Below are positions 2,921 through 18,157 of a stretch of DNA of 20,331 nt, piece by piece (positions within the stretch are counted from its first letter, which is position 1; every line of letters begins with the position of its first letter). The translations under genes were made by a program, and so were the position numbers. The DNA is taken from positions 1 through 20,331 of the forward strand of contig JAGQHE010000097.1 in NCBI GenBank assembly GCA_020431995.1, in the 5' to 3' direction. This DNA comes from Nitrosopumilus sp. GTDB taxonomy: Archaea; Thermoproteota; Nitrososphaeria; Nitrososphaerales; Nitrosopumilaceae. A model generated the notes under the pieces. The model was given only the letters and a program-made list of their open reading frames with translations. It was not told where the DNA came from and ran no database searches.

Positions 2921-2952
2921 GCCATTTTGCGATACATGGATAATTCCATTAT

Positions 2953-3261
2953 TTACAAGGTATTGGATTCCCTTGACAAAGTCTTCATCAGATAAAAGCC
3001 CATGACTCCACCAGTCGGCATTGTTTCTAAGCCATGATGGGATGTGCTCTGAAGCATCATATGTTGTGCCCGTAGGAGCATATGTAGAGTTCCCTTTTGT
3101 AGGAGGTATTGCAGTCCCTTGACAAAGTCTGTGTCAGAGATCTGAGAGGTAGACCACCATTTTGCGTTGTTTTTTACCCAGTCAGGGATTTCATGGGTCA
3201 ATCCAAACGAATTCATCGGGAAAAACAAGAGAATCACAAACAAAACAACAGCCCATTTCAT
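2953..3261 (-). CDS. Signal peptide plus first 'IPDWVKNNAKWW..SDxDFVKGLQYL' repeat; probable detached N-terminus of the SNase gene
   Basis: The ORF starts MKWAVVLFVILLFFPMNSFG (signal peptide), followed by IPDWVKNNAKWWSTSQISDTDFVKGLQYLLQKG. After about nt 3090 this frame becomes implausible (TLHMLLRAQHMMLQSTSHHGLETM). The -1 frame over the same bases reads STYAPTGTTYDASEHIPSWLRNNADWWSHGLLSDEDFVKGIQYLVNNGIIHVSQNGMPCLGNG and runs straight into ORF 2357..2920. Confidence 0.6.
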   Translation of the reverse strand: MKWAVVLFVILLFFPMNSFGLTHEIPDWVKNNAKWWSTSQISDTDFVKGLQYLLQKGTLHMLLRAQHMMLQSTSHHGLETMPTGGVMGFYLMKTLSRESNTL

Positions 3262-3458
3262 TCATAGAATACAAGCATGTTTTTTGTTATAACATTTTTC
3301 CAAGCCAATTCAGGGTCAATTCTTGACAAATTCATTGTTTTGTGTCAGAATTGTTGTTTCCATGCAGATGTATTTACCGACATGCTACAAAGTCAGACAA
3401 AACCGCAGACCTCAATTTTCTAGATCAAGCTTATTTATCACGAGAACCATACAGATAC

Positions 3459-3872
3459 ATGGCCGAGACTAATGAGTCAGAAAATATTTTTACAGAATGC
3501 AAGAAGAATACCGAGAGATTTTTCAACGAGATTGACAAGTCCTCGCCGGTTTACCATCAGATAGCAACCGACATTCAGAGAAGCTATCTTGACGCATGGA
3601 AGAACGTGATCGAATCATCCATTGCCTTGCAACAAGAATATGCTGCCAAGACAGGCCTGAATGTAAGCATGCCGGAAGAAACCATGAAAGAAATCCACAG
3701 CATAATGGAGAAAGCATCCAAGGCATACCAAAATCAAAACAAGTTTGTCTTCGATTCCACTGAGACATCAAAAAAAATATTTGACATATTCAGTGAAAAC
3801 ACCAAGATATTCAGCTCGCTGAACAAAAACATGATTGATCTGATGACATCCAGCATGAAAAAACGCGCCTGA
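3459..3872 (+). CDS. Hypothetical all-helical protein (phasin-like impression only)
   Basis: The track ORF is 3342..3872. The first ATG is at 3459 (MAETNESENIF...), and the upstream part of the ORF (SELLFPCRCIYRH) looks non-coding. The sequence is helical and K/E/S-rich with no catalytic motif. The phasin resemblance is only compositional. Confidence 0.5.
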   Translation: MAETNESENIFTECKKNTERFFNEIDKSSPVYHQIATDIQRSYLDAWKNVIESSIALQQEYAAKTGLNVSMPEETMKEIHSIMEKASKAYQNQNKFVFDSTETSKKIFDIFSENTKIFSSLNKNMIDLMTSSMKKRA

Positions 3873-4385: not shown

Positions 4386-5167
4386 ATGTAGAACAATGGC
4401 CATTCAGGATCGTGCAGCTTGCGTACAAGCGCATTCCGCCGTTTCCATTTAGAACCATGCTGTTTTCCCATCAGGATTTGAGACATGTTATACAATGACA
4501 GGACTTCAAGCCTGTGAAGGGAACAGCCTTCTACAGGATTCTTGAAGGATTGCAGTTTGTGCACGATTCAGGTATTTATCCATACCATGTTCCAGATCCA
4601 TATCAGACGAGACAGGAATTAAGAAGACATTCTTGTGCACTGATTGCCACTGGTTTTAGGTTTCCCCTCTGCCATCATCATTTGCCTGGCAATACTGATC
4701 TTTACAGCGTTGGAAAATAAGACATTGTGGTTAAACGTGTAGTTGATTCTTGTGTCTCAGAAATGCTTGTTTGGTTTTCTGAAATCAGTTATTTCTGATT
4801 TTTACGTATCAAACATGACAAAAACTGTTAGACAGACTGTCAGACGTATAATTCTCTACTTTTCTACATCCAAAATCCGTATGCATGCACCACTCTTCGC
4901 AAAACCTGTTATGCTTGCGTAGAGTCTACTTTGCCTCACCTTTTTCCGTAGAAGAATTGTAAAACAGGCATAGAAAAACTCACACATCATGCACAATAGG
5001 TTAGAATACTATGAATATCGCAATTTGATCTTTTTCTTGAATTGAAGTATTTTGTTTGGTAACAAACATTTCTCATTAAATTTTGTAATATTTAATAATT
5101 TATGAAAGTATTATGACAGCAAGTCATTACAAAAGTGTTTTAAACCGCAAGCAACAAACTATCATGA

Positions 5168-6187
5168 TTGCCCCCATTTACAAAACCACATGACATTGAT
5201 TTTGTTTTGGATGTCAATACCGAAGTGAATGCGATCAAGAACCTGCAGAGACAGGGAAAATACAAACTGCCAAAAGGGCACGGAAAGAAACTTCTCTGTG
5301 GCACATGGAATATCGCAAACTTTGATGCACAAAAAAGGCCAGACACTGCCATTCCACTGATTGCACAAATTATTGAGCCCTTTGATCTTATTGCCATACA
5401 GGAAATCAATGCGGACTTGACAGGGCTGAGAAAACTGATGAACTTTCTTCCAGATCATTCTGCAATCTTTACTGACATTGCAGGAAACGAGGAGAGGATG
5501 TGCTACCTCTACAAGAAAAAAAGAATCAAACTGACATCTCATGTTGGAGAGCTAGACATTCCGCCATCAAAGAGAAACGGATACAAGGTAAAGTTCAAAG
5601 ACGAGAATGGAGATCCATGCATCCAGAGGTTCTCAGGATTTGACAGAAACCCCTATGTCATAAGCTGGAACTTTAAGGGAACGGAATTTACCGCATACAA
5701 CTGCCACATCTACTTTGGAAAGAAAAAAGAGGAAGACATTATGAAGTTCCGAAGAAGAATTGTAGAGGTTTACTCTCTAGTTGAATGGATTACAAAAAAA
5801 GAGAACAAAAATGACGGAAGCCTGTATTCTTCTAACATTGTACTTTTGGGAGACATGAATGTCCCAGAAATGAAAGATGATGACCAGGTATTCAAGCAAC
5901 TAAACCGCGGAGTGTTTACAGCACTTGACTATACTGACTATCTCACGCCATACTCCAATATCAAAAATGATGCATCATATGACCAGCTAGTCATTGCAGA
6001 GCCGTTCTCAAACAAGATGAAACTGTGCGGGCACGGCATACTTGCATGGGACAATGCAGTATTTGCCAAACTTGCAAGTGACTTGGGAGTAAAGACGTCA
6101 AAGAAAGCAGTGTCCAAGTTTCAGGCATTTGCAAAGTGGGCAATATCTGATCATAGACCTTTGTGGTGTCTGATGGAATTTCAATAG
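5168..6187 (+). CDS. Endonuclease/exonuclease/phosphatase (EEP, DNase I-like) family protein
   Basis: The ordered EEP catalytic motifs are present: GTWNIANF, DLIAIQEI, LLGDMNV and ISDHRPLW near the C-terminus. There is no signal peptide. The start is uncertain: TTG at 5168, with an out-of-frame ATG at 5164. Confidence 0.8.
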   Translation: MPPFTKPHDIDFVLDVNTEVNAIKNLQRQGKYKLPKGHGKKLLCGTWNIANFDAQKRPDTAIPLIAQIIEPFDLIAIQEINADLTGLRKLMNFLPDHSAIFTDIAGNEERMCYLYKKKRIKLTSHVGELDIPPSKRNGYKVKFKDENGDPCIQRFSGFDRNPYVISWNFKGTEFTAYNCHIYFGKKKEEDIMKFRRRIVEVYSLVEWITKKENKNDGSLYSSNIVLLGDMNVPEMKDDDQVFKQLNRGVFTALDYTDYLTPYSNIKNDASYDQLVIAEPFSNKMKLCGHGILAWDNAVFAKLASDLGVKTSKKAVSKFQAFAKWAISDHRPLWCLMEFQ

Positions 6188-6501: not shown

Positions 6502-6984
6502 CGATCTGACTTTTAAAAGACATACTAAAAAACGAAAATCAAAATTAGTTAACCCGCAAACTAGAAACAAAGGCAACAATTGCAACGTTTGCAGGCCAGA
6601 TACAAATTCCATTTGGAGGTGGCATGATTGGTTTTAAACAGGCATCAAGTTAGTTTTACAGATTGCTGCTCCAAGTCAGCAATGCCAAATCGATGCTATG
6701 TTTGATCAAATTTGTTCCGATCCAGCCTCTCTCGGATGCCACAACATGCAAGACGATAAACTCCCAATTTGCACACCCAATCAAATGTGCACAGGCAATC
6801 GCCAAATGAGCGCAGAAAAATGAGCGTATGTTTCATCATTCACAATCAAACTAGTATCCATTATTTCTCACCATATCACATTTCACAAAAAGAATTCTTT
6901 AACAAGTCAAACATGCACAAGTGAATAAGATTAATGGTTGCAAGTCCTAGAAAACTTGTTAAATAACAATTACTTGATTTACTT

Positions 6985-7560
6985 ATGATTTCAAAAATAC
7001 TTGCATTTGCAGGAAGCACCAGAACTGATTCTTTTAACAAAAAACTAGTCAAAGTAGCAGCAGATGGGGCAAAAGAAGCAGGTGCAGATGTAACCATAAT
7101 TGATCTTCGTGACTATCAGATGCCACTTTATGATGAGGATTTAGAAAAACGAGAGGGATTGCCTTCCAGCACAAGGAAACTAAAAGATTTGATGTCAGAT
7201 CATCATGGATTTCTAATATCATCTCCAGAATACAACAGTTCAATTTCGGGAGTTCTCAAAAACACAATTGATTGGACATCAAGGCAAGGCGATGATGAAT
7301 TACCAAGGTCTTGTTTTAAAGGCAAAGTGGCAGGAATATTGAGTGCGTCGCCTGGTGGATTGGGAGGACTGCGAGGACTGGTTCATGTTCGTGCAATTCT
7401 TGAGAATATGGGAGTAATGGTAATTCCAGATCAAGTAGCAATATCAAAAGCTAATGAGGCTTTTAATTTGGATGGGTCTATGAAAGAACAAAGACAAGAA
7501 CAGCAAGTAAAAAAAATTGGATCTAATCTTGCTCAGATATTATTGAAACTAAATAACTGA
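6985..7560 (+). CDS. NAD(P)H-dependent FMN reductase family oxidoreductase
   Basis: The flavodoxin-like pattern is present: KILAFAGSTRTDSFNKKL, then GFLISSPEYNSSISGVLKNTIDWTSR, then the GGLGG loop. This is typical of the FMN_red family (SsuE/YieF/ArsH-like). Confidence 0.85.
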   Translation: MISKILAFAGSTRTDSFNKKLVKVAADGAKEAGADVTIIDLRDYQMPLYDEDLEKREGLPSSTRKLKDLMSDHHGFLISSPEYNSSISGVLKNTIDWTSRQGDDELPRSCFKGKVAGILSASPGGLGGLRGLVHVRAILENMGVMVIPDQVAISKANEAFNLDGSMKEQRQEQQVKKIGSNLAQILLKLNN

Positions 7561-8306: not shown

Positions 8307-8524
8307 GCCAGCGCCGCTATTGCGTGACAAAGTGTCTCACCGCACATGCAATCACTGTGAAATTTGGCTTCGGTTGTAGCAGCACATTCTGAACAGATCA
8401 TCTGCACAGATTGGCGGCATTGCGGACATTTCTCACATGTTTGCAGGTCTCCTCCACACCGTCTGCACAAAGTGTCTGGCATTTTGTATCGCCTCATGGA
8501 AAGTTGCGTCTTCCGATTCTCCAT
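8303..8524 (-). CDS. Cys-rich multi-zinc-ribbon protein
   Basis: The 73-aa ORF reads CRRCGGDLQTCEKCPQCRQSVQMICSECAA...CMCGETLC, with four closely spaced Cys pairs. It lies on the same strand as hsp20 and downstream of it (108-nt gap, 8525-8632). Confidence 0.5.
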   Translation of the reverse strand: MENRKTQLSMRRYKMPDTLCRRCGGDLQTCEKCPQCRQSVQMICSECAATTEAKFHSDCMCGETLCHAIAALA

Positions 8525-8632
8525 TTGATTATAGCTTCTTCTGGAAGTGAGGAAATTTTTTCAAATGAAGTTCTGACAGTGTCTCTTATTTTTGAGATGG
8601 ATGAACAATCCTTCATCGTTTTCACCTCTTGC

Positions 8633-9139
8633 CTATTCTACTGACACAACTCTTCCTTTTGGCTTGTCTTCTGTAAGCTTGAAGGTCAGTTCCAGTATTC
8701 CGTTTGTGTACTTTGCTTTTGCGGAGTTTTCATCGATCTTGTACTTGATTGGCACATGTGCCTCGTATTTCCTGTTTTCATTTTTGGTCTTGATTGTTAC
8801 AGCCTTTTCCTCAATTGACACATCAATGTCTGATTTTTCAATACCTGGCATTTCTGCTACCAGTTTGAGTGTGTTGTTTTCGCTATCAAGTACTTCATCT
8901 ACATATGGTTCCTTGACATCTGAAGAGGACGCAGGAAGTAGATTTCTGGGCCTGACATTGCCATACTCCTTGACAACAGGTTTTCCATCAGGTCCAACAG
9001 TCATTGTATAGCCATAATAATAGGGACCTACTGTCTGGTTTCTGTTTCCAAACCAGTTGTTTTCAAAGATGTCGTCCCAGTTAAAAAAGCGGTCAGACAT
9101 TCTTCGAAACTCTCTATCAAAGGGTTCATCAAACCACAT
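8633..9139 (-). CDS. hsp20: Small heat-shock protein, Hsp20/alpha-crystallin family
   Basis: An alpha-crystallin domain is present: LKLVAEMPGIEKSDIDVSIEEKAVTIKTK...YEAHVPIKYKIDENSAKAKYTNGILELTFKL. The gene is divergent from the thermosome gene. Confidence 0.9.
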   Translation of the reverse strand: MWFDEPFDREFRRMSDRFFNWDDIFENNWFGNRNQTVGPYYYGYTMTVGPDGKPVVKEYGNVRPRNLLPASSSDVKEPYVDEVLDSENNTLKLVAEMPGIEKSDIDVSIEEKAVTIKTKNENRKYEAHVPIKYKIDENSAKAKYTNGILELTFKLTEDKPKGRVVSVE

Positions 9140-9157
9140 TCATTTATCACCGAGTAT

Positions 9158-9240
9158 ATGTAATAGATGTGACAAAATATAAAGATTTTGCACATATTAT
9201 CTATAATTGACTAGATGTAATATATATGACAAAATTAAAA
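9158..9240. promoter_or_regulatory. Two 26-nt direct repeats in the divergent hsp20/thermosome promoter region
   Basis: 9158-9183 reads ATGTAATAGATGTGACAAAATATAAA and 9215-9240 reads ATGTAATATATATGACAAAATTAAAA, matching at about 22 of 26 positions. Each repeat ends in an A/T-rich TATA-like segment. Confidence 0.35.
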
Positions 9241-9275
9241 TTATGGAATTGTAATTAATTGGATTTGGTGATTTA

Positions 9276-10916
9276 TTGTCACAGCAACATATACCCGTGG
9301 TTCTTCTAAAGGAAGGATCCACTGAAACAAAAGGGCACGATGCCCAGAAAAACAATATCCAAGCCGCAAAGCTGGTGGCCGAACTGGTCAAGACAAGCCT
9401 AGGTCCGCGAGGAATGGACAAGATGATTGTTGATTCCCTAGGGGATGTAACCATAACAAATGATGGTGCTACAATCCTCAAGGAGATCGACGTCCAGCAT
9501 CCAGCCGCAAAGATGATGGTCGAGATCTCAAAGACTACAGATAACGAGGTAGGAGATGGTACCACATCTACTGTGATTCTGGCAGGTTCTCTGTTAGACA
9601 AAGCACAGGAGCTAACAGAGAAGAACGTTCATCCCACGATAGTGGTAAACGGTTTTAAAAAAGCAGCTGACAAGGGATTGGAAATTCTAAGAAGCGTAGC
9701 AGTCAAGGTTGACCCAGAAGACAAGGCATTTCTGAAAAAGATAGCAAAGACAACAATGGAGTCCAAGATCACGACATCCGATTCCAAGATGCTCTCCGAA
9801 GTAGTTGTGGAAGCCATTCTTGCAGTAAGTGAAAAGCAGAACGGCAAGACAAAGGTTGACATTGGCAACATCAAAGTCGAGAAGAAGGCAGGAGGCTCCA
9901 TGAAGTCAACAGAACTGGTTCAAGGAATTATCTTGGACAAGGAAATTGTTCACGGTGCAATGCCAAAACAGATCAAGACAGCAAAGATTGCACTTGTAAA
10001 CTGCCCATTGGAGATTGAGAAGACAGAGTTTGATGCCAAAATCAACATCAACTCTCCTGATCAAATGCAGCAGTTCATAGACGAGGAGAACAGGATGCTC
10101 AAAAAACTTGTGGATCAGGTTGCAGCGTCTGGTGCAAATGTTCTGCTGTGTCAGAAGGGAATAGACGACATGGCACAGCATTATCTTACGAAGGTTGGAA
10201 TCATGGCAGTAAGAAGAATAAAAGAAAGCGACATGATCAAGCTTTCAAAGGCAACAGGTGCCAGAATAATTACGAACATTGCTGAGCTTACAAAAGAGGA
10301 TCTTGGTGCTGCAGAGATTGCAGAAGAGAGAGAGGTTGAGACCGACAAGTGGGTGTTCATCGAGGGATGCAAGAACCCAAAAGCCGTAAGCATTCTTGTC
10401 AGGGGAGGTTCTCAGAGGATAGTAGACGAGGTGGACCGCTCCATCCATGATGCCTTGATGGCAGTAAAGGATGTTGTCACAAACCCGCATGCGCTGGTTG
10501 GCGCAGGCGCTCCCGAGGCATTCGTTGCAAACAAGCTAAGGGACTGGTCAAATTCGCTAGAGGGACGCTCTCAACTTGCAGCCCAGAAATTCGCAGATGC
10601 CATAGAGAACATGGCAGTGATCTTGGCTGAAAGCGCAGGGATGGATCCGCTTGATGCGCAAGTTCAGTTAAGACAAAAGGCAACTGACGGCAGGGCAGTA
10701 TATGGTATTGATGTCGAGAATGCAATGGTTGCAGACATGTCAAAAAGCGACATCTATGATCCGTTGGCCGTAAAAGAGCAGGTAATCAATGGCGCAACGG
10801 AGGTTGCATGCATGATTCTTAGAATCGATGATGTCATAGCAGGAAGCAAAAGCATGGCCCCATCAGGTCCTCCAGGAGAAAGGATGGGCGGAATGCCTCC
10901 AGGAATGGATATGTAA
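9276..10916 (+). CDS. ths: Thermosome subunit (group II chaperonin)
   Basis: 546 aa with a TTG start. Canonical motifs are present: [25 protein letters not shown], plus a [10 protein letters not shown]-terminal tail. Confidence 0.97.
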
Positions 10917-10960
10917 TTCCATTTTCTTTTTTATTTTTACCACAAGTCAAAATGCAGGGA

Positions 10961-11120
10961 CATTTCCTCACATGGCATGCTCTTGACAAACCATGAGTCT
11001 AAAGACAACATGAGGGATGGATCAGGGTATCTTTGAGGATGATTTTAGAATTCTTTACCGAAATGGAATGATCATCCTTTTAGAAATTTTATGTAGTGGC
11101 TCATTTGTTCTTTGAGTCAT
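10961..11120 (-). pseudogene. cas1: Heavily degraded second copy of the Cas1 N-terminal region
   Basis: The minus strand from the ATG at 11120 aligns in three shifting frames with the 15172 copy. MTQRTNE / HYIKFLKG* / KNSKIILKDTL / DSWFVKSMPCEEM corresponds to MTLKNQKNHYNVKLLQGYG...KNSKIVLKNGL...EEWFVKNMPYEKI. A 23-nt core matches at 22 of 23 positions (10972-10994 vs 15013-15035). The relic contains in-frame stops and indels. Confidence 0.55.
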
Positions 11121-11192
11121 TTTTGAAATTAAAAGATGGACAAAAGTATGGGAATGCTTTTTAGGTTATCATTCAGAATTTTTAGATGTATT

Positions 11193-11254
11193 CAAGAAGC
11201 AGGTTCACATGATTCTTGACTCTTGGGTCAAACAAGAGATCGTCCTGCTTCTTG
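11193..11254. repeat. 62-nt nested inverted repeat (long imperfect hairpin)
   Basis: The outer arms CAAGAAGCAGG (11193-11203) and CCTGCTTCTTG (11244-11254) are perfect complements. The inner palindrome TTGAC-TCTTGG-GTCAA sits at the centre. Confidence 0.6.
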
Positions 11255-11402
11255 ATTGTATATTAAATCATTTATGATTAAAAAGGGATACGTAGAATTT
11301 GTTAGTCTTTCAGTCATCAATTCATAATGATTTTAAAATGACCCTGAACTTTCTCCAACAAATCATAACTTACGTAATTGTCTGGCATGGCAAACTCAGG
11401 AA

Positions 11403-11429
11403 CAAAAACGGTGATGCCATTTTTACTCT
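11403..11429 (-). repeat. Distal copy of the aEF-2 3'-terminal sequence (att/TSD-like direct repeat)
   Basis: The minus strand reads AGAGTAAAAATGG-CATCACCGTTTTTG. Its first 13 nt are identical to the aEF-2 end (15971-15959), and the next ~15 nt resemble the sequence that follows it there (TATGCCCCCGTTTTG). Confidence 0.45.
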
Positions 11430-11539
11430 GCCGATTAAAATGCAGAGTCGTCTTCACAGGCACAAAAAACGCAACATAACTAGTGCAATGATGTGGGTTT
11501 GTTTGTTGAAGATTTTTTAAAAAGGGATAACGCATCAAA

Positions 11540-12034
11540 ATGTTATTGGCAAAATTAGAAAATTATGAACTCTCAGATTCACAAATAAAAAACGGATTAA
11601 AGAAAGCTCTCCTAGGGTCTATCGAACTGTCTGGATATGCAAAGTATATTCTTGAACGAAACGGAAACACTACATTATCTTTAGGGTTGTATTCCTTTGC
11701 AATTGGAGAATATGGCAAGTATGAGATTCTCAGGGAATTTCTTTCAGAATCTGTAAAAAGACACCACATACCAAAAGTAATTTTTGATGTAAAAAATTTC
11801 AAGATTAATTTTAAAAAAGCGTTGGATACGTTGCCTAGGAGCATAACTGAGAATCTTTCGAATGATCTGTCATTGGACTTGCAATCCAAAATGAGTTATT
11901 TCAATCTAACATGGGATCAAGAAAAAGAAAAATGGAATGCTCCTCCAAAAATTGATTCATCTCTACTGTCAGAGTCATTGATTTCATTTGAAAAACATGT
12001 TTCTGTGAAACTAGATTCTGAATATGACAGTTAA
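11540..12034 (+). CDS. Hypothetical protein, AbiV-like (abortive-infection family) impression
   Basis: 164-aa ORF preceded by an A/T-rich TATA-like box about 23 nt upstream, which suggests a leaderless transcript. The N-terminal helix pair IKNGLKKALLGSIELSGYAKYILE...LSLGLYSFAIGEYGKYEILREF resembles the AbiV hallmark (A..L..A..L....A.EE.GK...L). This is recalled from memory of the family and not verified. Confidence 0.45.
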   Translation: MLLAKLENYELSDSQIKNGLKKALLGSIELSGYAKYILERNGNTTLSLGLYSFAIGEYGKYEILREFLSESVKRHHIPKVIFDVKNFKINFKKALDTLPRSITENLSNDLSLDLQSKMSYFNLTWDQEKEKWNAPPKIDSSLLSESLISFEKHVSVKLDSEYDS

Positions 12035-12209
12035 AGAACAGCAGGATCATTACAACGTGAAAAGACTACGGTCATTCTGAACATGTAAAAAATTCACAAA
12101 AACTAAAATCAGACCACAATCCTTTCTCTAATCAACTACAAAGCATTGGTTGTCAATGTTATTTGTATTCGAAAAGTATTGGATATGCTGGGTTTATCTC
12201 ATTTATTTA

Positions 12210-12503
12210 TCAAAAGTGGATCCACGTTACAAACAGAAAAGAAGATACGTATCCAAATTCCACCCAAATGAACAGTCGACATCCAACAGCACTCCTAGTA
12301 CCACATCTAGATCCTATTGTAAATTTCCACCCATAAGAATCAGGAGCATTGACATTATCAGGTCTAAGACTTGTAGGCCAAGTAAAACAATATCTCCCTC
12401 CTCCACACTTACTAGCAAGTTTGAAAAAATCTGGAGATAAAATACCGACTGTACTTGTACCGTGTTTCTTTATCATCTTTGTCAATGAAATAGAAATTTT
12501 CAT
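12210..12503 (-). CDS. Hypothetical protein (uncertain gene)
   Basis: The 97-aa ORF has protein-like composition (GGGRYCFTWPTSLRPDNVNAPDSYGWKFTIGS). The overlapping + strand ORF 12150..12440 is S/T/R-rich and looks like a shadow ORF. I recognise no family. Confidence 0.3.
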   Translation of the reverse strand: MKISISLTKMIKKHGTSTVGILSPDFFKLASKCGGGRYCFTWPTSLRPDNVNAPDSYGWKFTIGSRCGTRSAVGCRLFIWVEFGYVSSFLFVTWIHF

Positions 12504-12994
12504 TTTTGAGGATTTGTAGAGATCATTAGTTAGAACAAACGGGCGATTCTTAGTGATGAATCCTCAAATGAAGATATTTGAGATGATTACTTTGGCAAAC
12601 TTTTCTCAATCCTTTCAACAAGTTCTTTACTTCTTTAGACACAAATCTCACTAGCGATGTGAATTAAATTTAATGTGTCTAACACATACTCTGCAAATTT
12701 TTGCAAAGATTGTATGTTGTTCTTTGTAAGTTGTTTGTTATCTGACTAGAATTATTTAAATATTTGAAAAAAAATAAATAGCAATTTAAATTCTCAAAGA
12801 TTTGAAAGTTCTTTTTATACTAATCAATGGTAGTCAAAAACTTTCCATTAACAAAACGTCAGGTGTTTTACATGTTTTTCTAATGTATTTATTCTCTTTT
12901 TTGCTGAACTAGATCATTTTCTAATTTTGTGATTCTATCGTGTTGTTCTTTATTTTTATTGCATCTACAGAAATATCAAGTTGATTTATAGCTA

Positions 12995-14422
12995 CTAAGT
13001 CCCTGGAATTTGATCAACATATCGTGTTTCTGCGGATAACACAATATCATAAGCATCGCCATTTTCAAAACTATCAATCGACAACGATATCATGCCATTA
13101 CTAACTGGCAACGTTTGGATTTCAGTAATTACATTGCTAGCAGATGCAGGATTTGGAATACGCATGATATCTGCTTGTATTGTGTTTGCATCATAAGGAT
13201 AATTTTGAATGTTTATCACAACGTTATTTTGATTGCGGTCATAATTACCTACAAGTAGATGAATTTTTTCTGTTTGGTCATTTTTACTTGCTAGTGAAAT
13301 TATGTGGGACCCTAAGCTTTCTGTAAAAATTCTATTCTTATCTAATTCAGCATATGCCTTATATACAAAATAGATGTTCTCGGGGGTTTTATTGTCTTGG
13401 TCAAGCATTCCATTTAATCCATTCCAGCAATTACTCCATACAGACGATCCAGATCCCATGTCCCAGCATGCACGATTTGCAACATCTACATTTGCTTTTT
13501 CAAGTGAGTATAGCCATCGCACAGCCCATCCTGGGACAGACTGATTGTCATTTGAACCATATTCATTGATATGTATCTCTTGAATCTTCAAATTCTGTTT
13601 TTTTTCAAAAGTACTATCTATTATGAAACGCATTTTTTTCACATGTTCGAGCATCGCATCAGGATCATCAAATTCATGCCAAGACAATGCAGTTAGTTCA
13701 AGATTGTTTTCTTCAATATATCTTATAAAATTAGTTAGATGTTGTTCGTCAAATTGATTTGTGCTTGGTGCAACTATTTTAGCATTAGGCACGTGTTTTT
13801 TTATTATATCATGTGTTATTTTAACAATCTCAAATTTTTGGGATTCAGTAAAGCCGTTGAAAATACCATCCGGCTCATTATATACATCATAATAATCTAT
13901 GTGGATTTTATTCTGTACAGTTTTGATCATAAGATCTTCCATAAAATATTCCCAAATAGTTTTAAATTGTTCAAATGATTGAATACAAGTTTTATTAGAT
14001 GAATCACATTCAGATTCTAAATCAAGAGAGTACTGATTATTACTCACCCCATAAACTGAGAAAAACAAATCAGACAGTACAAAAGTGATTTGTGTGTCGT
14101 GCTTTGATCTAACATTGTCATTTACAAAATTATAGATTGGAATAGTACTCATTCTCCATGATTTTGGTTCTAACTGTGAAACAGAATCCAATATTTCATT
14201 TTGGTTGATGATGTCCGGCAAACCATGAATAAACCCTGATTTTAATTTGACTTTGTCAATATTTTCTCCAGCATCAACAATGACAGACGGCATCATACCT
14301 GTGTTGATTAACTTGTTTATGCCGACAGCATCTTGAATTTTATCAGACGAATTTACAGACGTTATGCCAAGAATTAACAATAAGATTACAGATGCGCTTG
14401 TTGCAATGAAAATTTTTTTCAA
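12995..14422 (-). CDS. Secreted glycoside hydrolase, clan GH-A TIM-barrel type (GH39/GH30/GH5-like) with a C-terminal beta-sandwich
   Basis: A signal peptide is present (MKKIFIATSASVILLLILGITSVNS). YYDVYNEPDG matches the clan GH-A 'NEP' acid/base motif. IQEIHINEYGSN is a candidate nucleophile strand, and LSWHEFDD lies between them. The gene is very AT-rich. Confidence 0.6.
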   Translation of the reverse strand: MKKIFIATSASVILLLILGITSVNSSDKIQDAVGINKLINTGMMPSVIVDAGENIDKVKLKSGFIHGLPDIINQNEILDSVSQLEPKSWRMSTIPIYNFVNDNVRSKHDTQITFVLSDLFFSVYGVSNNQYSLDLESECDSSNKTCIQSFEQFKTIWEYFMEDLMIKTVQNKIHIDYYDVYNEPDGIFNGFTESQKFEIVKITHDIIKKHVPNAKIVAPSTNQFDEQHLTNFIRYIEENNLELTALSWHEFDDPDAMLEHVKKMRFIIDSTFEKKQNLKIQEIHINEYGSNDNQSVPGWAVRWLYSLEKANVDVANRACWDMGSGSSVWSNCWNGLNGMLDQDNKTPENIYFVYKAYAELDKNRIFTESLGSHIISLASKNDQTEKIHLLVGNYDRNQNNVVINIQNYPYDANTIQADIMRIPNPASASNVITEIQTLPVSNGMISLSIDSFENGDAYDIVLSAETRYVDQIPGT

Positions 14423-14567
14423 CTATGCGGTTTCAAGCAAACATTCTATCTAAACTTGACGTTAAGCGTAGGCAAATAATCAAGTCACAAGAGAATAAAA
14501 TACATAATCAAGCCATACACGAATTCAAATCTTCTAATCATCACTGCAAATTACTGGTATGCTGGAA

Positions 14568-14812
14568 TTATGATTCGCATCCAATACCGTCTTTATCCCC
14601 ATCAAACCTATGTTGGTCTGGAAGAAGCACTCTGAATTTTTTGCATGGCACATCTTTGCAATCTAAGTCAGGAGGATAAGGTGGGATGCATACATCAGGA
14701 TAAGAAGGATCGCAGTTTTCTGTACTTTGTGTAGTTTTTGGAGCAGACGGGGTAGTCTGAGAAGTTTTAGTTGTGATTGTTGCTTCGCAGATATAATCTG
14801 CTTTTGTAGGTA
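14568..14812 (-). pseudogene. 3' stump of an Excalibur-domain gene, paralogous to the C-terminus of the SNase gene at 2357-2560
   Basis: The +1 frame relative to the Cas1 ORF reads ADYICEATITTKTSQTTPSAPKTTQSTENCDPSYPDVCIPPYPPDLDCKDVPCKKFRVLLPDQHRFDGDKDGIGCES*, with its stop at 14570-14568. It is nearly identical in protein sequence and clearly similar in DNA to 2357-2490. An in-frame stop lies just upstream and there is no start codon. Confidence 0.8.
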
Positions 14813-15172
14813 TTCACATTTCTCAGGATTTCTAAACGTGTCATATTGCGCTATGCGGTATTTTGTGGCAGTTAGTGAATCCATCACGCCATTTAGAAAT
14901 GATATTGGTTTCCCAAAAGTGTCAGTCAAGACAAGATTACGGTTGTTTTGATTTAGTAGAGATAATGCTTCAATGGAAACATATCCTTTTCCAGATAACA
15001 CTATCTTCTCATATGGCATGTTCTTGACAAACCATTCTTCTTTTTCTTGTTCTCCTGTTACATCATGTAAGCCGTTCTTTAGAACGATTTTGGAATTTTT
15101 AAGAGAAATTGAAACTCCGTATCCTTGGAGAAGTTTTACGTTGTAATGATTTTTCTGATTTTTTAAAGTCAA
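14663..15172 (-). pseudogene. cas1: Truncated Cas1 (casposase-like): N-terminal domain and first helix only, about 127 aa
   Basis: The Cas1 N-terminal architecture is present. Beta strands: YNVKLLQGYGVSISLKNSKIVLKNG. The central segment is EKIVLSGKGYVSIEALSLLNQNNRNLVLTDTFGKPISFLNG. The helical domain then opens with TATKYRIAQYDTFRNPEKCEYLQKQIISAK, as in ..R.AQ....d.e.rl.iAk.ii.aKi.NQ. After that the ORF degenerates into a read-through of the Excalibur stump in the wrong frame. The catalytic helical domain is absent. The start is TTG. Confidence 0.7.
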
Positions 15173-15183
15173 TCTGTCTAGAA

Positions 15184-15621
15184 TTAAGAATTTTCAGATG
15201 TTGAAAATGTGTAAGACATAGGTGGAGTTATAGATTGAACATAAGGAGAATCTAAAATTTCTTCCAATATGGAATATGTGTTAATTACTGCAAAATAGAT
15301 ATGCGCCCACCGTGCTTGATTGAAGGGTTTGTCTTTTTCAAACTTGAATGTGTATCCATCTAGAGTAATCTCTTTTGAGGATTTTGTATGAATTCCATTA
15401 GAATGGAGGCAATTTCTAACATATGCAAGAAGATTCAAGATATCTCTTTTTTCATCAGAATTTTGGATTTGTAAAACTGACAGTAGTTTTGTTACTATGT
15501 CGTAATATTGTCTAGGTACATTTTCATCCATACTGGACAAAAGTATTTTGAATAAAGTTTCTATTTGAAACTGAAAATTAGTAATAAATGAAATACGACG
15601 AATGTCATTTTCAACCATCAT
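15184..15621 (-). CDS. C-terminal part of a hypothetical protein with a possible HEPN-like RNxxH motif; probably one gene with 15677..15880
   Basis: The frame stays open upstream of the Met (IKKIINEEQARKLLSNDLGDFHGS-MMVEND...) up to the A8 tract. The sequence is all-helical and contains LLAYVRNCLHSNGIH. The R-to-H spacing is one residue shorter than the canonical HEPN Rx4-6H motif, so the HEPN assignment is weak. Confidence 0.5.
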   Translation of the reverse strand: MMVENDIRRISFITNFQFQIETLFKILLSSMDENVPRQYYDIVTKLLSVLQIQNSDEKRDILNLLAYVRNCLHSNGIHTKSSKEITLDGYTFKFEKDKPFNQARWAHIYFAVINTYSILEEILDSPYVQSITPPMSYTFSTSENS

Positions 15622-15676
15622 AGATCCGTGAAAATCCCCTAGATCGTTACTTAGTAATTTTCGTGCTTGTTCTTCA

Positions 15677-15880
15677 TTAATGATTTTTTTTATCTAATGA
15701 TTCTAGTAAACTCATGTGCATTACTGATGACATACAAAGATGGCAACAACCGTTTAGAATGATATATCTTCCATCATTATCTGGATATCCATATTTTGTT
15801 AATAAGTTAAGAAACTTATTTCTCAATTCTAAAAATTGTTTTTTGTCCTCACTTAATGTAGGAGTGTCATTGAATGGCAA
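15677..15880 (-). CDS. N-terminal part of the same hypothetical protein, ending in the A8 tract
   Basis: The ORF has a TTG start and ends ...LLESLDKKNH*. The stop is created by the reading frame through the homopolymer at 15684-15691 (T8 on the + strand). With seven A instead of eight it reads ...SLDKKIINEEQARKLL... into ORF 15184..15621. Confidence 0.45.
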   Translation of the reverse strand: MPFNDTPTLSEDKKQFLELRNKFLNLLTKYGYPDNDGRYIILNGCCHLCMSSVMHMSLLESLDKKNH

Positions 15881-15942
15881 TACCGTTTTACTTTGAATTA
15901 AATAATTTCTTAAGCTTTACGACAAGCGTCATGTTTTTGTGC

Positions 15943-15971
15943 CCAAAACGGGGGCATACCATTTTTACTCT
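15943..15971 (-). repeat. aEF-2 3' terminus plus adjacent sequence (proximal att/TSD-like repeat)
   Basis: The minus strand reads AGAGTAAAAATGG-TATGCCCCCGTTTTGGGC and includes the last codon and a half and the TAA stop of aEF-2. It is repeated at 11429-11403. A degenerate third copy (CAAAGTAAAACGGTATTGCC) lies at 15897-15878. Confidence 0.5.
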
Positions 15972-18157
15972 TTGTCGATGAACTCGTTGACGCCTGGAGG
16001 GTCTGGCGCAAGCCCTTTTCTTTTCCTAATGTCCGCTACTGCGGATGCCAGCATTGACTTTGGGACCTCTGTCCATTCCTTAAAGGAGGTGTTCCATGTC
16101 GCACGTCCTGCGGTCTGGCCCCTCATCTCCTCAGACAATGTGAACGTCTCAGAGGCAGGAATCTCGCCTACAATGATGCTTGATGCGCCCTTTTGCTGCA
16201 TGTCTAATACCTTGCCACGCTTGCCAGAAAGAACAGTTGCCACGTTTCCGACCAGGTCAGTTGGGACACGTACCTCGATTGCTAGCGTAGGCTCCAGGAC
16301 TGCTGTACCTGCAGTAAGCAACGCGCCCATACATGCCCTGCGTGAGGCGGGTCCAAGCTGTGACAGTCCCCTGTGTGCAGTGTCCTCATGAGGAACAAAG
16401 TGAGTAAATATGAACTTGCAGTTTCTCATCTGCTCCTTGCACAGAGGCCCTTCTTTCATTACTTCTTCAAACCCGGAATTGATAGAGTCAGTTGACTCTT
16501 GTACAAACTGGACACCCTTTGTCCCATTGATCAGTACGTTTCCACGCGAGTCAAACTTCATGACCCTCTTGATAGTATCAGTATCCCATCCAGCCTCTTT
16601 TAGCAAGTCAGCTACAACTTTTTTGTCCTTCATGTCGCTGATTTCGCCGGTCCTAAGCATGTGGGCAATCTTTGGCTCCAGTGGCTCCACCTTCATGAAA
16701 ATCTTGTTGTGCCTGTTAGGGGATTTTGCCATGACTGGTTCGCATGTACCCTTGACAGTCTCCCTGTAGTTAATCAAAGGTTCGGAAGTCACAATCTCAC
16801 ATTTTGCATCCTGGATTCTGTGCGTTGCAACATCAAGGTGCAACACGCCCATCCCGGCAACGATTGTCTCTCCACTTTCCTCATCTATCTTTACAATGAG
16901 GTTTGGATCCTCAATGGTAAGCTGCTTTAGGATTTCTACGAGCTTTGGCAGGTCTTTAGGATGCTTTGGCTCGATGGCGATTTGAACGACAGGTTCTGAG
17001 ACATACTTTACGCCTTCAAACATAGGGATGCCTTTGACTGACGACAATGTGTTTCCGGCTCTTGCCTCTGTCAGCCCTAGCAGTGCAGGGATGTTTCCAG
17101 CCCCCAGCTCTCCTACCTGCTCTCTCTGGTTGCCCATAAAGAAATTGACTGACTGTATTCTTCCTTCCCTTTTGGAATCAATTATGTTTATTGTCTGGCC
17201 GTCTTTGACGACTCCGGAGAACAGCCTGCCAATTGCGACAGGCCCTGCTGCAGGATCCAACACCATGTTCACAATCATCATGATTGTCGGGCCGTCATCA
17301 CTGCATGCAAGAAGTGCCTTTCCAATGTCAGACTCCAAGTCACCCTTCCAGATTTGAGGTATTCTATACTTTACCGCCTCAGGTGGAGAGGGATGATGCT
17401 TTACGACCATCCCAAGTACTGCGTCAGCCAAAGGTGCCTTTTCAACCAAGACATCGACTTTTTCGTTGACATAGGCGTCAATCACATCCTTGAATGTGAT
17501 TCCTTTCTCCTTCATCAAATCCACGTTTATTGCCCATTTGTCTTTTGCAGAACCAAACGTCACGCTTGCGTTCTGAATTGACACTTTCCATTTTTCTTTG
17601 TACTCTGGCTCTGCATAGGTGTCAATTAGTTGGTTAAAGTTGGAAACTACTTCTGCTAGCTGTTGCTGCATTTTTTCAGGAGTCAGTCTGAGCTCCTTGA
17701 TCAGCCTGTCAACCTTGTTGATAAACAAGACAGGCTTTACTCTCTCCTCAAGTGCCATCCTGGTCACGGTCTCAGTTTGAGTCATAATGCCTTCTACGGC
17801 ATCACATACAACTACGGCGCCGTCAATTGCCCTAAGGCTACGGATTACCCTTCCGCTAAAGTCCACGTGTCCGGGCGTGTCAATCATGTTAATGACGTAT
17901 TCCTGACCCTTTTGAGAAAAGAGCAGTGTTACGTTTGCCTGATAAATCGTAATCCCTCTTTGCTGTTCCTCTTTGTCAAAGTCCATTGCAAGAGCCTTTC
18001 CTGCAGCTGAGGGGGCAATAATTCCAGAGTTTGCCAAAAGGCTGTCACTCATTGTGGTTTTACCGTGGTCAACGTGCGCGATTACACCAAAGTTACGAAT
18101 GTTTGCCTTGTTCTTGATAATTTTCATAACCTCTGCTGTTGACTTGAATTTTGCCAT
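15965..18157 (-). CDS. fusA: Translation elongation factor 2 (aEF-2)
   Basis: 730 aa. GTPase motifs AHVDHGKTT, DTPGHVDF and NKVD are present, along with the diphthamide-region motif HEDTAHRG. Confidence 0.97.
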   Translation of the reverse strand: MAKFKSTAEVMKIIKNKANIRNFGVIAHVDHGKTTMSDSLLANSGIIAPSAAGKALAMDFDKEEQQRGITIYQANVTLLFSQKGQEYVINMIDTPGHVDFSGRVIRSLRAIDGAVVVCDAVEGIMTQTETVTRMALEERVKPVLFINKVDRLIKELRLTPEKMQQQLAEVVSNFNQLIDTYAEPEYKEKWKVSIQNASVTFGSAKDKWAINVDLMKEKGITFKDVIDAYVNEKVDVLVEKAPLADAVLGMVVKHHPSPPEAVKYRIPQIWKGDLESDIGKALLACSDDGPTIMMIVNMVLDPAAGPVAIGRLFSGVVKDGQTINIIDSKREGRIQSVNFFMGNQREQVGELGAGNIPALLGLTEARAGNTLSSVKGIPMFEGVKYVSEPVVQIAIEPKHPKDLPKLVEILKQLTIEDPNLIVKIDEESGETIVAGMGVLHLDVATHRIQDAKCEIVTSEPLINYRETVKGTCEPVMAKSPNRHNKIFMKVEPLEPKIAHMLRTGEISDMKDKKVVADLLKEAGWDTDTIKRVMKFDSRGNVLINGTKGVQFVQESTDSINSGFEEVMKEGPLCKEQMRNCKFIFTHFVPHEDTAHRGLSQLGPASRRACMGALLTAGTAVLEPTLAIEVRVPTDLVGNVATVLSGKRGKVLDMQQKGASSIIVGEIPASETFTLSEEMRGQTAGRATWNTSFKEWTEVPKSMLASAVADIRKRKGLAPDPPGVNEFIDKE

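Follow-up and report, generated by a model that had tools for sequence, protein, structure and literature searches.

Background

The adaptation machinery of CRISPR systems is thought to derive from casposons, transposons that carry a Cas1 gene, few of which have been dissected. Here we describe a stretch of 20,331 nucleotides (nt) of Nitrosopumilus DNA (assembly GCA_020431995.1, contig JAGQHE010000097.1, positions 1 to 20,331; hereafter referred to as the window), in which the block between two convergent genes, a thermosome gene and the aEF-2 gene, very probably represents a decayed tandem array of family-1 casposons, with approximately three remnants, at the 3' end of the aEF-2 gene. Family-1 casposons of Nitrosopumilus are known to insert at this position without disrupting the gene (PMC4046053, PMC4779613, PMC6563490). 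The two genes bounding the block (10917-15964) are:

9276-10916, plus strand: thermosome gene, convergent with the aEF-2 gene
15965-18157, minus strand: aEF-2 gene, the integration target, intact, with Pfam EF-Tu/EFG domains

The closest described systems are NitAR1-C1, NitSJ-C1 and NitAR2-C1 (Krupovic et al. 2014, PMC4046053; Wang et al. 2021, PMC8464041), which share with the present locus the target gene (likewise intact), the 13-bp target, homologous terminal inverted repeats (TIRs) starting AAAAAT..CCCCC and a compact Cas1 approximately 70% identical in the N-terminal domain; here, however, terminal fragments only are present, and one remnant is inverted. In Candidatus Nitrosopumilus adriaticus NF5, NitNF5-C1 and NitNF5-C2 have also reused the ef-2 target and form an array separated by target site duplications (TSDs) (Krupovic et al. 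2019, PMC6563490), although the published pair comprises two casposons as compared to approximately three heavily deleted remnants here. Pile-up and inactivation at a single site have likewise been described for family-2 casposons of Methanococcoides burtonii and Methanolobus psychrophilus and for Tn7 arrays at attTn7 (PMC4046053), which, unlike the present locus, involve another casposon family, a different host phylum and other targets (tRNA or intergenic sites; glmS for Tn7). NitEve-C1, a family-1 casposon, carries a HEPN nuclease gene (PMC6563490), comparable to the AbiV-family gene found here. The site, the mechanism, the TSD and TIR rules, tandem ef-2 casposons, decaying adjacent casposons and a HEPN gene in a family-1 casposon have thus all been published, and current understanding is unchanged by the locus; what is new is a well-resolved, heavily decayed example, along with two modest additions, i.e., a survey of casposon scars in 80 species and a mobile-looking Hsp20-thermosome module.

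Target site duplications and terminal inverted repeats

A first-pass annotation, made from the sequence of the window alone, had suggested a casposon graveyard in this block, and this suggestion is borne out by the presence of the published family-1 target together with the remains of TSDs and TIRs. These features are listed here from right to left (L-numbers, here and below, are labels of comparison genomes or contigs):

15967-15979, minus strand: TSD1, ATCGACAAAGAGT, consisting of the last four aEF-2 codons and the T of the stop codon
15905-15966, minus strand: TIR of remnant A1, AAAAATGGTATGCCCCC...TGACGCTTGTCGTAAAG
11436-11510, plus strand (inward): TIR of remnant A2, aligning with aEF-2-adjacent termini in L014 and L012 and with the NitAR1 and NitAR2 TIRs
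11425-11435, minus strand: TSD2, ATCGGC--AGAGT, degenerate owing to one substitution and the loss of 2 nt
11350-11424, minus strand: TIR of remnant B, AAAAATGGCATCACCGTTTTTGTTCC...AGACAATTACGTAAGTTATGATTT, matching the NitAR2-C1 TIR and the L003 terminus

The aEF-2 gene terminates in ...TTC ATC GAC AAA GAG T/AA, where the 13-mer ending at the slash (ATCGACAAAGAGT) is homologous to the 13-bp TSD of the N. koreensis casposase (ATTGATAAAGAGT, preceded by a TTT leader), which was defined experimentally (PMC8464041). TSD1 is directly followed by AAAAATGGTATGCCCCCGTTTTGGGCAC...TGACGCTTGTCGTAAAG, the first two A's of which complete the aEF-2 stop codon, and this A1 terminus aligns both with the sequence that follows the aEF-2 stop codon in five comparison genomes (L016, L073, L011, L022 and L020) and with the NitAR1-C1 TIR. 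The A1 and A2 TIRs have GGCACAAAAA in common, at the same offset.

The 16-mer AGAGTAAAAATGGYAT was found at only two sites in the window, i.e., at the aEF-2 stop codon and at 11414-11429 (0.01 expected by chance). On the minus strand, the second site reads ...CTCTGCATTTTA / ATCGGC--AGAGT / AAAAATGGCATCACCGTTTTTGTTCC...; from here, the B TIR leads leftwards into a Cas1 relic (R2, see below), and the A2 TIR leads rightwards into the AbiV-family gene and then into another Cas1 relic (R3). By its sequence, this order of TIR, TSD and TIR is the junction expected of two casposons inserted in tandem. Of the hallmarks of a family-1 casposon at the aEF-2 3' end, the locus thus retains the target duplication (TSD1 and the degenerate TSD2) and three termini homologous to the published NitAR1 and NitAR2 TIRs and to aEF-2-adjacent termini in 17 related genomes; for none of the elements are both matching TIRs still present intact.

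The host target (15967-15982) shows only synonymous differences from that of N. koreensis; TTC takes the place of the TTT leader, and ACAA that of the ATAA "ruler" motif. As the leader and ruler motifs are both reported to be important for integration, the host aEF-2 site may now be a poorer casposon target, and its synonymous drift represents a natural test of the published target rules.

Cas1 relics

Searches of the block with tblastn, using seven full-length Cas1 proteins as queries, identified three Cas1 relics; the first-pass annotation had recognized Cas1 relics here and had put their number at two.

15172 to 14774, minus strand: relic R1, N-terminal domain, residues 1-132 (Pfam PF01867, E = 3e-10)
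11116 to 10955, minus strand: relic R2, residues ~3-58, with at least two frameshifts (tblastn)
12024 to 12201, plus strand: relic R3, residues 1-65, with one frameshift (tblastn)

R1 shows 72% identity to casposase-type Cas1 proteins of Nitrosopumilus, including the Cas1 located beside a protein-primed PolB in the N. ureiphilus casposon (L090), and resembles the NitSJ and NitAR1 casposases in a published alignment; its homology to a comparison contig with an intact cas1 gene (L173) stops at 14758. R3 is oriented opposite to R1, and the two form an inverted repeat (I1). R2 is 93% identical to R1 over 28 nt and 72% identical to the L173 cas1 gene, and ends 39 nt from the thermosome stop codon. 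The relics are clearly homologous to family-1-type Cas1, but the C-terminal catalytic domain of Cas1 is absent from R1, R2 and R3, none of which thus represents a casposase with an intact active site, and neither an integrase nor a transposase was found in 10917-15964. Lacking both the Cas1 catalytic domain and a PolB, the remnants cannot move by themselves, in agreement with the first-pass view that the elements are probably immobile. In an analysis of the window with PADLOC, the Cas1 stump was the only match.

R1 remains an uninterrupted open reading frame (ORF) of 169 aa (14663-15172, minus strand), and five independent metagenome contigs carry this ORF with 100% identity; the final ~37 residues (to 14663) represent an out-of-frame reading of the adjacent Excalibur stump. 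A weak match resembling the Cas1 C-terminus in ORF 5168-6187 (pairwise E = 7e-4) overlaps a real endonuclease/exonuclease/phosphatase domain and was judged to be due to chance.

Genes within the block

In addition to the Cas1 relics, the block contains the following features:

15184-15880, minus strand: casposon-linked gene encoding 231 aa, with a frameshift in a T8 run (15684-15691) that splits it into ORFs 15677-15880 and 15184-15621
14559-14813, minus strand: 3' stump of an Excalibur-domain gene (Excalibur Pfam E = 9e-4), fused to the truncated Cas1
12995-14422, minus strand: GH39-like (clan GH-A) glycoside hydrolase gene, 475 aa, intact, with an N-terminal signal or anchor sequence
12504-12994, no strand: non-coding AT-rich stretch, GC 0.27, no ORF of 40 aa or more
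12210-12503, minus strand: 97-aa ORF, with a 97% identical copy in an independent contig (L086)
11540-12034, plus strand: AbiV-family (HEPN_AbiV) gene, 164 aa, the stop codon of which overlaps the start of R3

All five of the non-Cas1 features named by the first-pass annotation (an Excalibur stump, a gene split in a homopolymer, an AbiV-like gene, a secreted glycoside hydrolase and about 0.5 kb of non-coding A/T-rich DNA) were recovered here. Its further proposal, that defence-like and secreted-enzyme cargo has been retained, is supported only in part: the secreted hydrolase is intact, but the defence part is weak, as the AbiV-family gene lacks the conserved His of that family and the 231-aa gene is frameshifted.

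After repair of the frameshift, the 231-aa protein has full-length homologues (227-235 aa) with a conserved RNCLHSNGIH motif. A 55% identical homologue is encoded directly upstream of the intact 341-aa Cas1 in L173, and more distant homologues adjoin a TIR in L174-L176, i.e., the gene order TIR, small gene, cas1 recurs outside this locus. An AlphaFold2 (AF2) model of the protein was helical (predicted local distance difference test [pLDDT] score of 91); searches with this model against the Protein Data Bank (PDB) and viral models gave no match at E ≤ 0.001 and only recurrent weak matches to HEPN toxins, which were too weak for the protein to be assigned as a HEPN protein.

The AbiV-like gene has 61 clusters of homologues and is placed by homology in the Pfam family of AbiV, an abortive-infection HEPN RNase (PF18728): all 28 HMMER homologues in a 29-sequence alignment match this model (best E = 3.4e-14), although the window protein itself reaches only E = 0.052 (14 bits; cut-off 27). 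The activity of the window protein is doubtful, as it is shorter than its relatives (164 as compared to ~190-210 aa) and, like its closest relative, has Phe in place of a His that is conserved in 25 of the 29 sequences. No partner gene was recognized for the AbiV-like gene, and a single-sequence structure model of its product was too poor for use (pLDDT 37).

The hydrolase matches PDB entries 5u22 (E = 2e-14) and 8uwt (E = 7e-14), and the glutamates that serve as acid/base and nucleophile are both present, "vyNEPd" and "hINEYg" aligning with "iwNEPd" and "tINEYc", so that both the similarity and the NEP and xNEYG glutamates of a GH39-like enzyme were found. No Pfam model matched the protein, and NCBIfam gave only a sub-threshold chance match. 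The hydrolase looks functional. NCBIfam also gave no match for the 231-aa, 164-aa and 97-aa proteins, the last of which matched no Pfam or PADLOC model either, and neither an Rfam family nor any tandem or CRISPR repeat was detected in the non-coding stretch.

Base composition and assembly support

Mean GC content was significantly lower in the ten 500-nt windows within the block (10958-15958; 0.330) than in the 29 outside it (0.420; P = 3e-6, Mann-Whitney test), which agrees with the first-pass description of AT-rich DNA between convergent thermosome and aEF-2 genes. The visual contrast is exaggerated by the very GC-rich flanking genes; with these two genes excluded, GC content outside the block was 0.408 (P = 7e-6). 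GC content at third codon positions (GC3) ranged from 0.23 to 0.31 for the genes of the island as compared to 0.48 to 0.52 for core genes. The host lineage itself is unusually GC-rich for Nitrosopumilus (GC about 0.41-0.45), with a GC content of 0.477 for the aEF-2 gene (median in the genus, 0.384) and 0.43 for the core flank (0.33 in the genus). The composition of the block is thus foreign to its host, and its GC content of 0.33, which is ordinary for Nitrosopumilus, fits an import from relatives with lower GC content.

Much of the block was also recovered independently, i.e., 13955-15534 in five independent short metagenome contigs (99.85-100% identity) and 11511-12679 in one (99.7% identity), and the junction between aEF-2 and the A1 TIR is supported by homology with many genomes. 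Identical-protein look-ups for the thermosome, a 145-aa ORF and the hydrolase yielded no further contigs.

The aEF-2 site in related genomes

The neighbourhood of aEF-2 was compared with that in 80 species-level Nitrosopumilus genomes, to which the aEF-2 protein of the window shows 91-99% amino acid identity. Synteny with these genomes begins at the window's right end and breaks off at about 15905-15970, depending on the genome, in most cases at the aEF-2 stop codon. No thermosome gene was found within 10 kb downstream of aEF-2 in any of the 80 genomes, and the gene set conserved downstream of aEF-2 in relatives is absent from the window. Conservation of the gene content of the block among relatives, which would have argued against an insertion, was thus looked for and not observed; the first-pass idea of an insertion between two once-adjacent housekeeping genes, on the other hand, has to be abandoned.

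Among the 70 relatives that could be scored, the conserved gene set starts less than 350 nt from aEF-2 in 10 (empty sites), 350-2000 nt from it in 19 and 2-9 kb from it in 19; in 13 it was not found within 10 kb, and 9 had too little flanking sequence. The insert between aEF-2 and the core genes thus ranges from < 350 nt to > 10 kb. Sequence resembling a casposon TIR directly follows the aEF-2 stop codon in 17 of 76 evaluable species genomes (~22%), mostly as solitary ends; in the closest relative (L001), the contig ends inside the TIR. Cas1 relics were found at the aEF-2 site in L003 and L011 and PolB relics in L006, L012 and L021. Overall, casposon scars are common at the ef-2 gene in Nitrosopumilus, where this hypervariable hotspot is among the most variable sites of the genus. 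These findings should help in the annotation of abundant marine archaea and in estimating how often casposons move and die.

Two comparison genomes contain small TIR-bounded elements at the aEF-2 site, which are candidate non-autonomous mini-casposons: one in L022 (12190-15190; 2.9 kb), with a 62-nt inverted terminus (92% identical) and a TSD copy ~3 kb away, and one in L011 (12190-13350), with an inverted terminus ~1.1 kb away. A further contig (L174) carries two outward-facing copies of the TSD/TIR motif, GAGTAAAAA..CCCC (3409-3428, minus strand, and 6899-6918, plus strand), one of which directly precedes the homologue of the 231-aa gene; this contig also has a tyrosine integrase, and aEF-2, for which no direct search was made, is not among the gene calls of the stretch analysed. 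An intact 283-aa Cas1 of the same clade as the relics was observed away from aEF-2 and without PolB in L087 (6025-8083) as well as in L088 and L089. It is flanked by a gene for a 164-aa CPDase-like protein and a SLFN/AlbA_2 gene, and lies between leucine-biosynthesis and aspartyl-tRNA synthetase genes. The 164-aa gene upstream of this solo Cas1 is unrelated to the 164-aa gene of the window.

Proposed history of the block

Under the interpretation as a tandem array, a casposase (i.e., a Cas1 homologue) would have joined the casposon ends to both edges of the 13-bp target, which would duplicate the target and leave aEF-2 intact. Remnant A1 would then consist of a TIR, the 231-aa gene and the first 132 cas1 codons; remnant A2, which is inverted, of a TIR, the AbiV-family gene and a cas1 5' stump; and remnant B of a TIR and the third cas1 5' stump. 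The most plausible order of insertion would be B, then A2, then A1, each into the target copy proximal to aEF-2, as B is the most decayed remnant and lies beyond the decayed TSD, while in A1 the cas1 stump can still be read as an open frame and the gene next to it has a single frameshift. Later deletions would have cost the array every Cas1 catalytic domain, its polymerase genes and the TSD that separated A1 from A2, and would have left immobile debris, the intact secreted GH39-like hydrolase, and AbiV-family and 231-aa genes of doubtful function. Read in this way, the locus documents in nature how the ef-2 target was used repeatedly, with a TIR-TSD-TIR junction and one inverted insertion.

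A number of observations weigh against this interpretation. A PolB was not found in 10917-15964 (tblastn), the region contains no complete casposon, and the three or four conserved, uncharacterised genes upstream of PolB (tblastn with queries from the L090 casposon) have no match there. TSD2 is degenerate, with 11 nt and one gap of 2 nt. A1 and A2 have termini that differ in sequence type, and the TSD expected between them is missing, so that the number and order of the insertions can only be inferred. No independent contig spans the junction between remnant B and the thermosome gene (~10955). Finally, the 2.6 kb in the centre, which hold the Excalibur stump, the hydrolase, the non-coding stretch and the 97-aa ORF, may have come from elsewhere; the Excalibur stump is paralogous to another gene of the window, which points to recombination rather than to cargo.

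Alternative explanations

It is quite possible, if somewhat less likely than not, that the central segment (12202-14773) represents island or chromosomal DNA that was brought in by recombination or deletion. The Excalibur stump (14559-14730) is an 81.5% identical direct repeat of 2347-2519, the 3' end of a SNase-Excalibur gene (2357-2920) located left of the thermosome gene; a homologue of this SNase-Excalibur gene is found in the aEF-2 island of L026, which has no casposon genes, and a homologue of the hydrolase was found in none of the casposon loci examined. Conversely, GC and GC3 of the segment are as low as those of the casposon parts, the segment lies strictly within the TSD-bounded block, and variable genes specific to the individual element are a known feature of casposons (PMC6563490). 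The two copies of the direct repeat (173 nt) are 12.2 kb apart and could mediate deletion of the intervening DNA.

We consider it unlikely that only two events occurred, with 11436-15966 entering as one composite non-autonomous casposon-derived unit, mobilized in trans, beside an older remnant B. Such a unit would account for a block that is bounded exactly by both target copies and has TIR-like ends on either side; moreover, the N. koreensis casposase accepts very diverse ends in vitro, from 7 nt to ~4 kb (PMC8464041), and the small elements in L022 and L011 described above are likewise TIR-bounded. The two ends, however, carry different genes upstream of Cas1 (the 231-aa and AbiV families, between which a profile-profile comparison with hhalign was not significant), and their TIR subtypes match different casposon lineages, for which two elements and a deletion represent the simpler explanation.

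Slightly less likely still is an assembly chimera, in which the thermosome module described below and the casposon debris would have been joined through a repeated casposon or Cas1 sequence. The adjacency of the two is seen in no related genome, the point at ~10955 lacks a spanning independent contig, and contigs of close relatives break at these same points (L001 in the TIR, L177 in the 3' end of the thermosome gene). Nevertheless, both halves have relatives with ~87% nt identity and share a similarly unusual high GC and GC3, as expected of one lineage, and a PolB scrap, the SNase-Excalibur gene and ORF 3342-3872 tie the left-hand part of the window to the aEF-2 islands of relatives.

An origin of the Cas1 stumps from a degraded CRISPR-Cas adaptation module is effectively refuted: Pfam and PADLOC label the fragment simply as Cas1, but the window contains no CRISPR array and no cas2, cas4 or other cas genes, the closest homologues are Nitrosopumilus Cas1 proteins encoded beside a protein-primed PolB, and TIRs and TSDs are present at a known casposon site. 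A tRNA scan, Rfam and a tandem-repeat scan of the region found nothing, i.e., neither a tRNA target nor a CRISPR array.

The left flank

The features to the left of the block that bear on the extent of the array are:

8479-10957, both strands: Hsp20-thermosome module, a divergent gene pair at the left edge of the AT-rich block, outside the casposons
4430-4642, plus strand: scrap of a protein-primed PolB gene, residues ~209-288 (tblastn with the L090 PolB, E = 0.004), outside the region

The best database matches of the thermosome were at 94% (two clusters) and 84% identity, followed by ≤ 74% identity to other Nitrososphaerota thermosomes; by sequence comparison, the thermosome of the window is a rare paralogue and not the ancestral neighbour of aEF-2. 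The Hsp20-thermosome module shows 78-87% nt identity to segments of L171 (9261-11761), L172 (5415-7761) and L177 (55-2418), and thus occurs in four contexts with unrelated neighbours; in L171 it is located in a heat-shock cluster, in L172 it is ~7.6 kb from a gene for a 382-aa Cas1, and in L177 it is beside LeuRS and AlaRS genes. Homology ends at 10953-10957 for L171 and L172, and covers only 8479-10843 for L177, the contig of which ends inside the thermosome 3' end. The first-pass treatment of the thermosome gene as a stable housekeeping flank therefore does not hold, and the left boundary of the insertion may lie elsewhere. We also considered whether the thermosome could represent casposon cargo; this found no direct support, as the genes on the Cas1 side in L172 are not detectably related to those of L090 and no TIRs were found around the L172 thermosome.

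The PolB scrap and the PolB relic that is located downstream of aEF-2 in L006 share 73% of their nucleotides over 158 nt. The scrap contains an in-frame stop codon, lies 11 kb from aEF-2 and is oriented as would be expected if its casposon had inserted in the same way as A1 or B. A 176-aa ORF (3342-3872, plus strand) has homologues (26-31% identity) that represent the first gene downstream of aEF-2 in ~20 relatives. Together with the SNase-Excalibur gene, these two features suggest that the flexible island probably extends to the left, beyond the thermosome gene; the conserved core on the left side is not reached within the window. The homologues of ORF 3342-3872 are always co-oriented with aEF-2; the window copy is inverted and 12 kb away, which may hint at an inversion. 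A simple inversion model was not adopted, as orthology is uncertain at 26-31% identity.

As the module directly adjoins a Cas1 stump in the window and is separated by ~7.6 kb from a Cas1 gene in L172, one could speculate that the aEF-2 site is a genus-wide platform for cargo delivery, at which casposon insertion, decay and recombination between casposon copies would reshuffle the island and would have brought in the Hsp20-thermosome module. We regard this as improbable; if true, the flux of accessory genes in marine ammonia oxidisers, among them genes for chaperones and secreted enzymes as well as HEPN genes, would be driven to a major extent by casposons.

Two further observations concern genes left of the thermosome. 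ORF 2953-3261 (minus strand) contains an internal 57-nt repeat (2936-3138, 77%) encoding a repeated domain of ~37 aa, a domain that recurs at many other loci and also makes up the C-terminal repeats of a 545-aa protein encoded next to the N. ureiphilus casposon (L090). The gene for an NADPH-dependent FMN reductase (6985-7560, plus strand) has a GC3 of 0.24, as low as that of the casposon block, as compared to 0.41-0.45 for its neighbours, and is probably another recent import.

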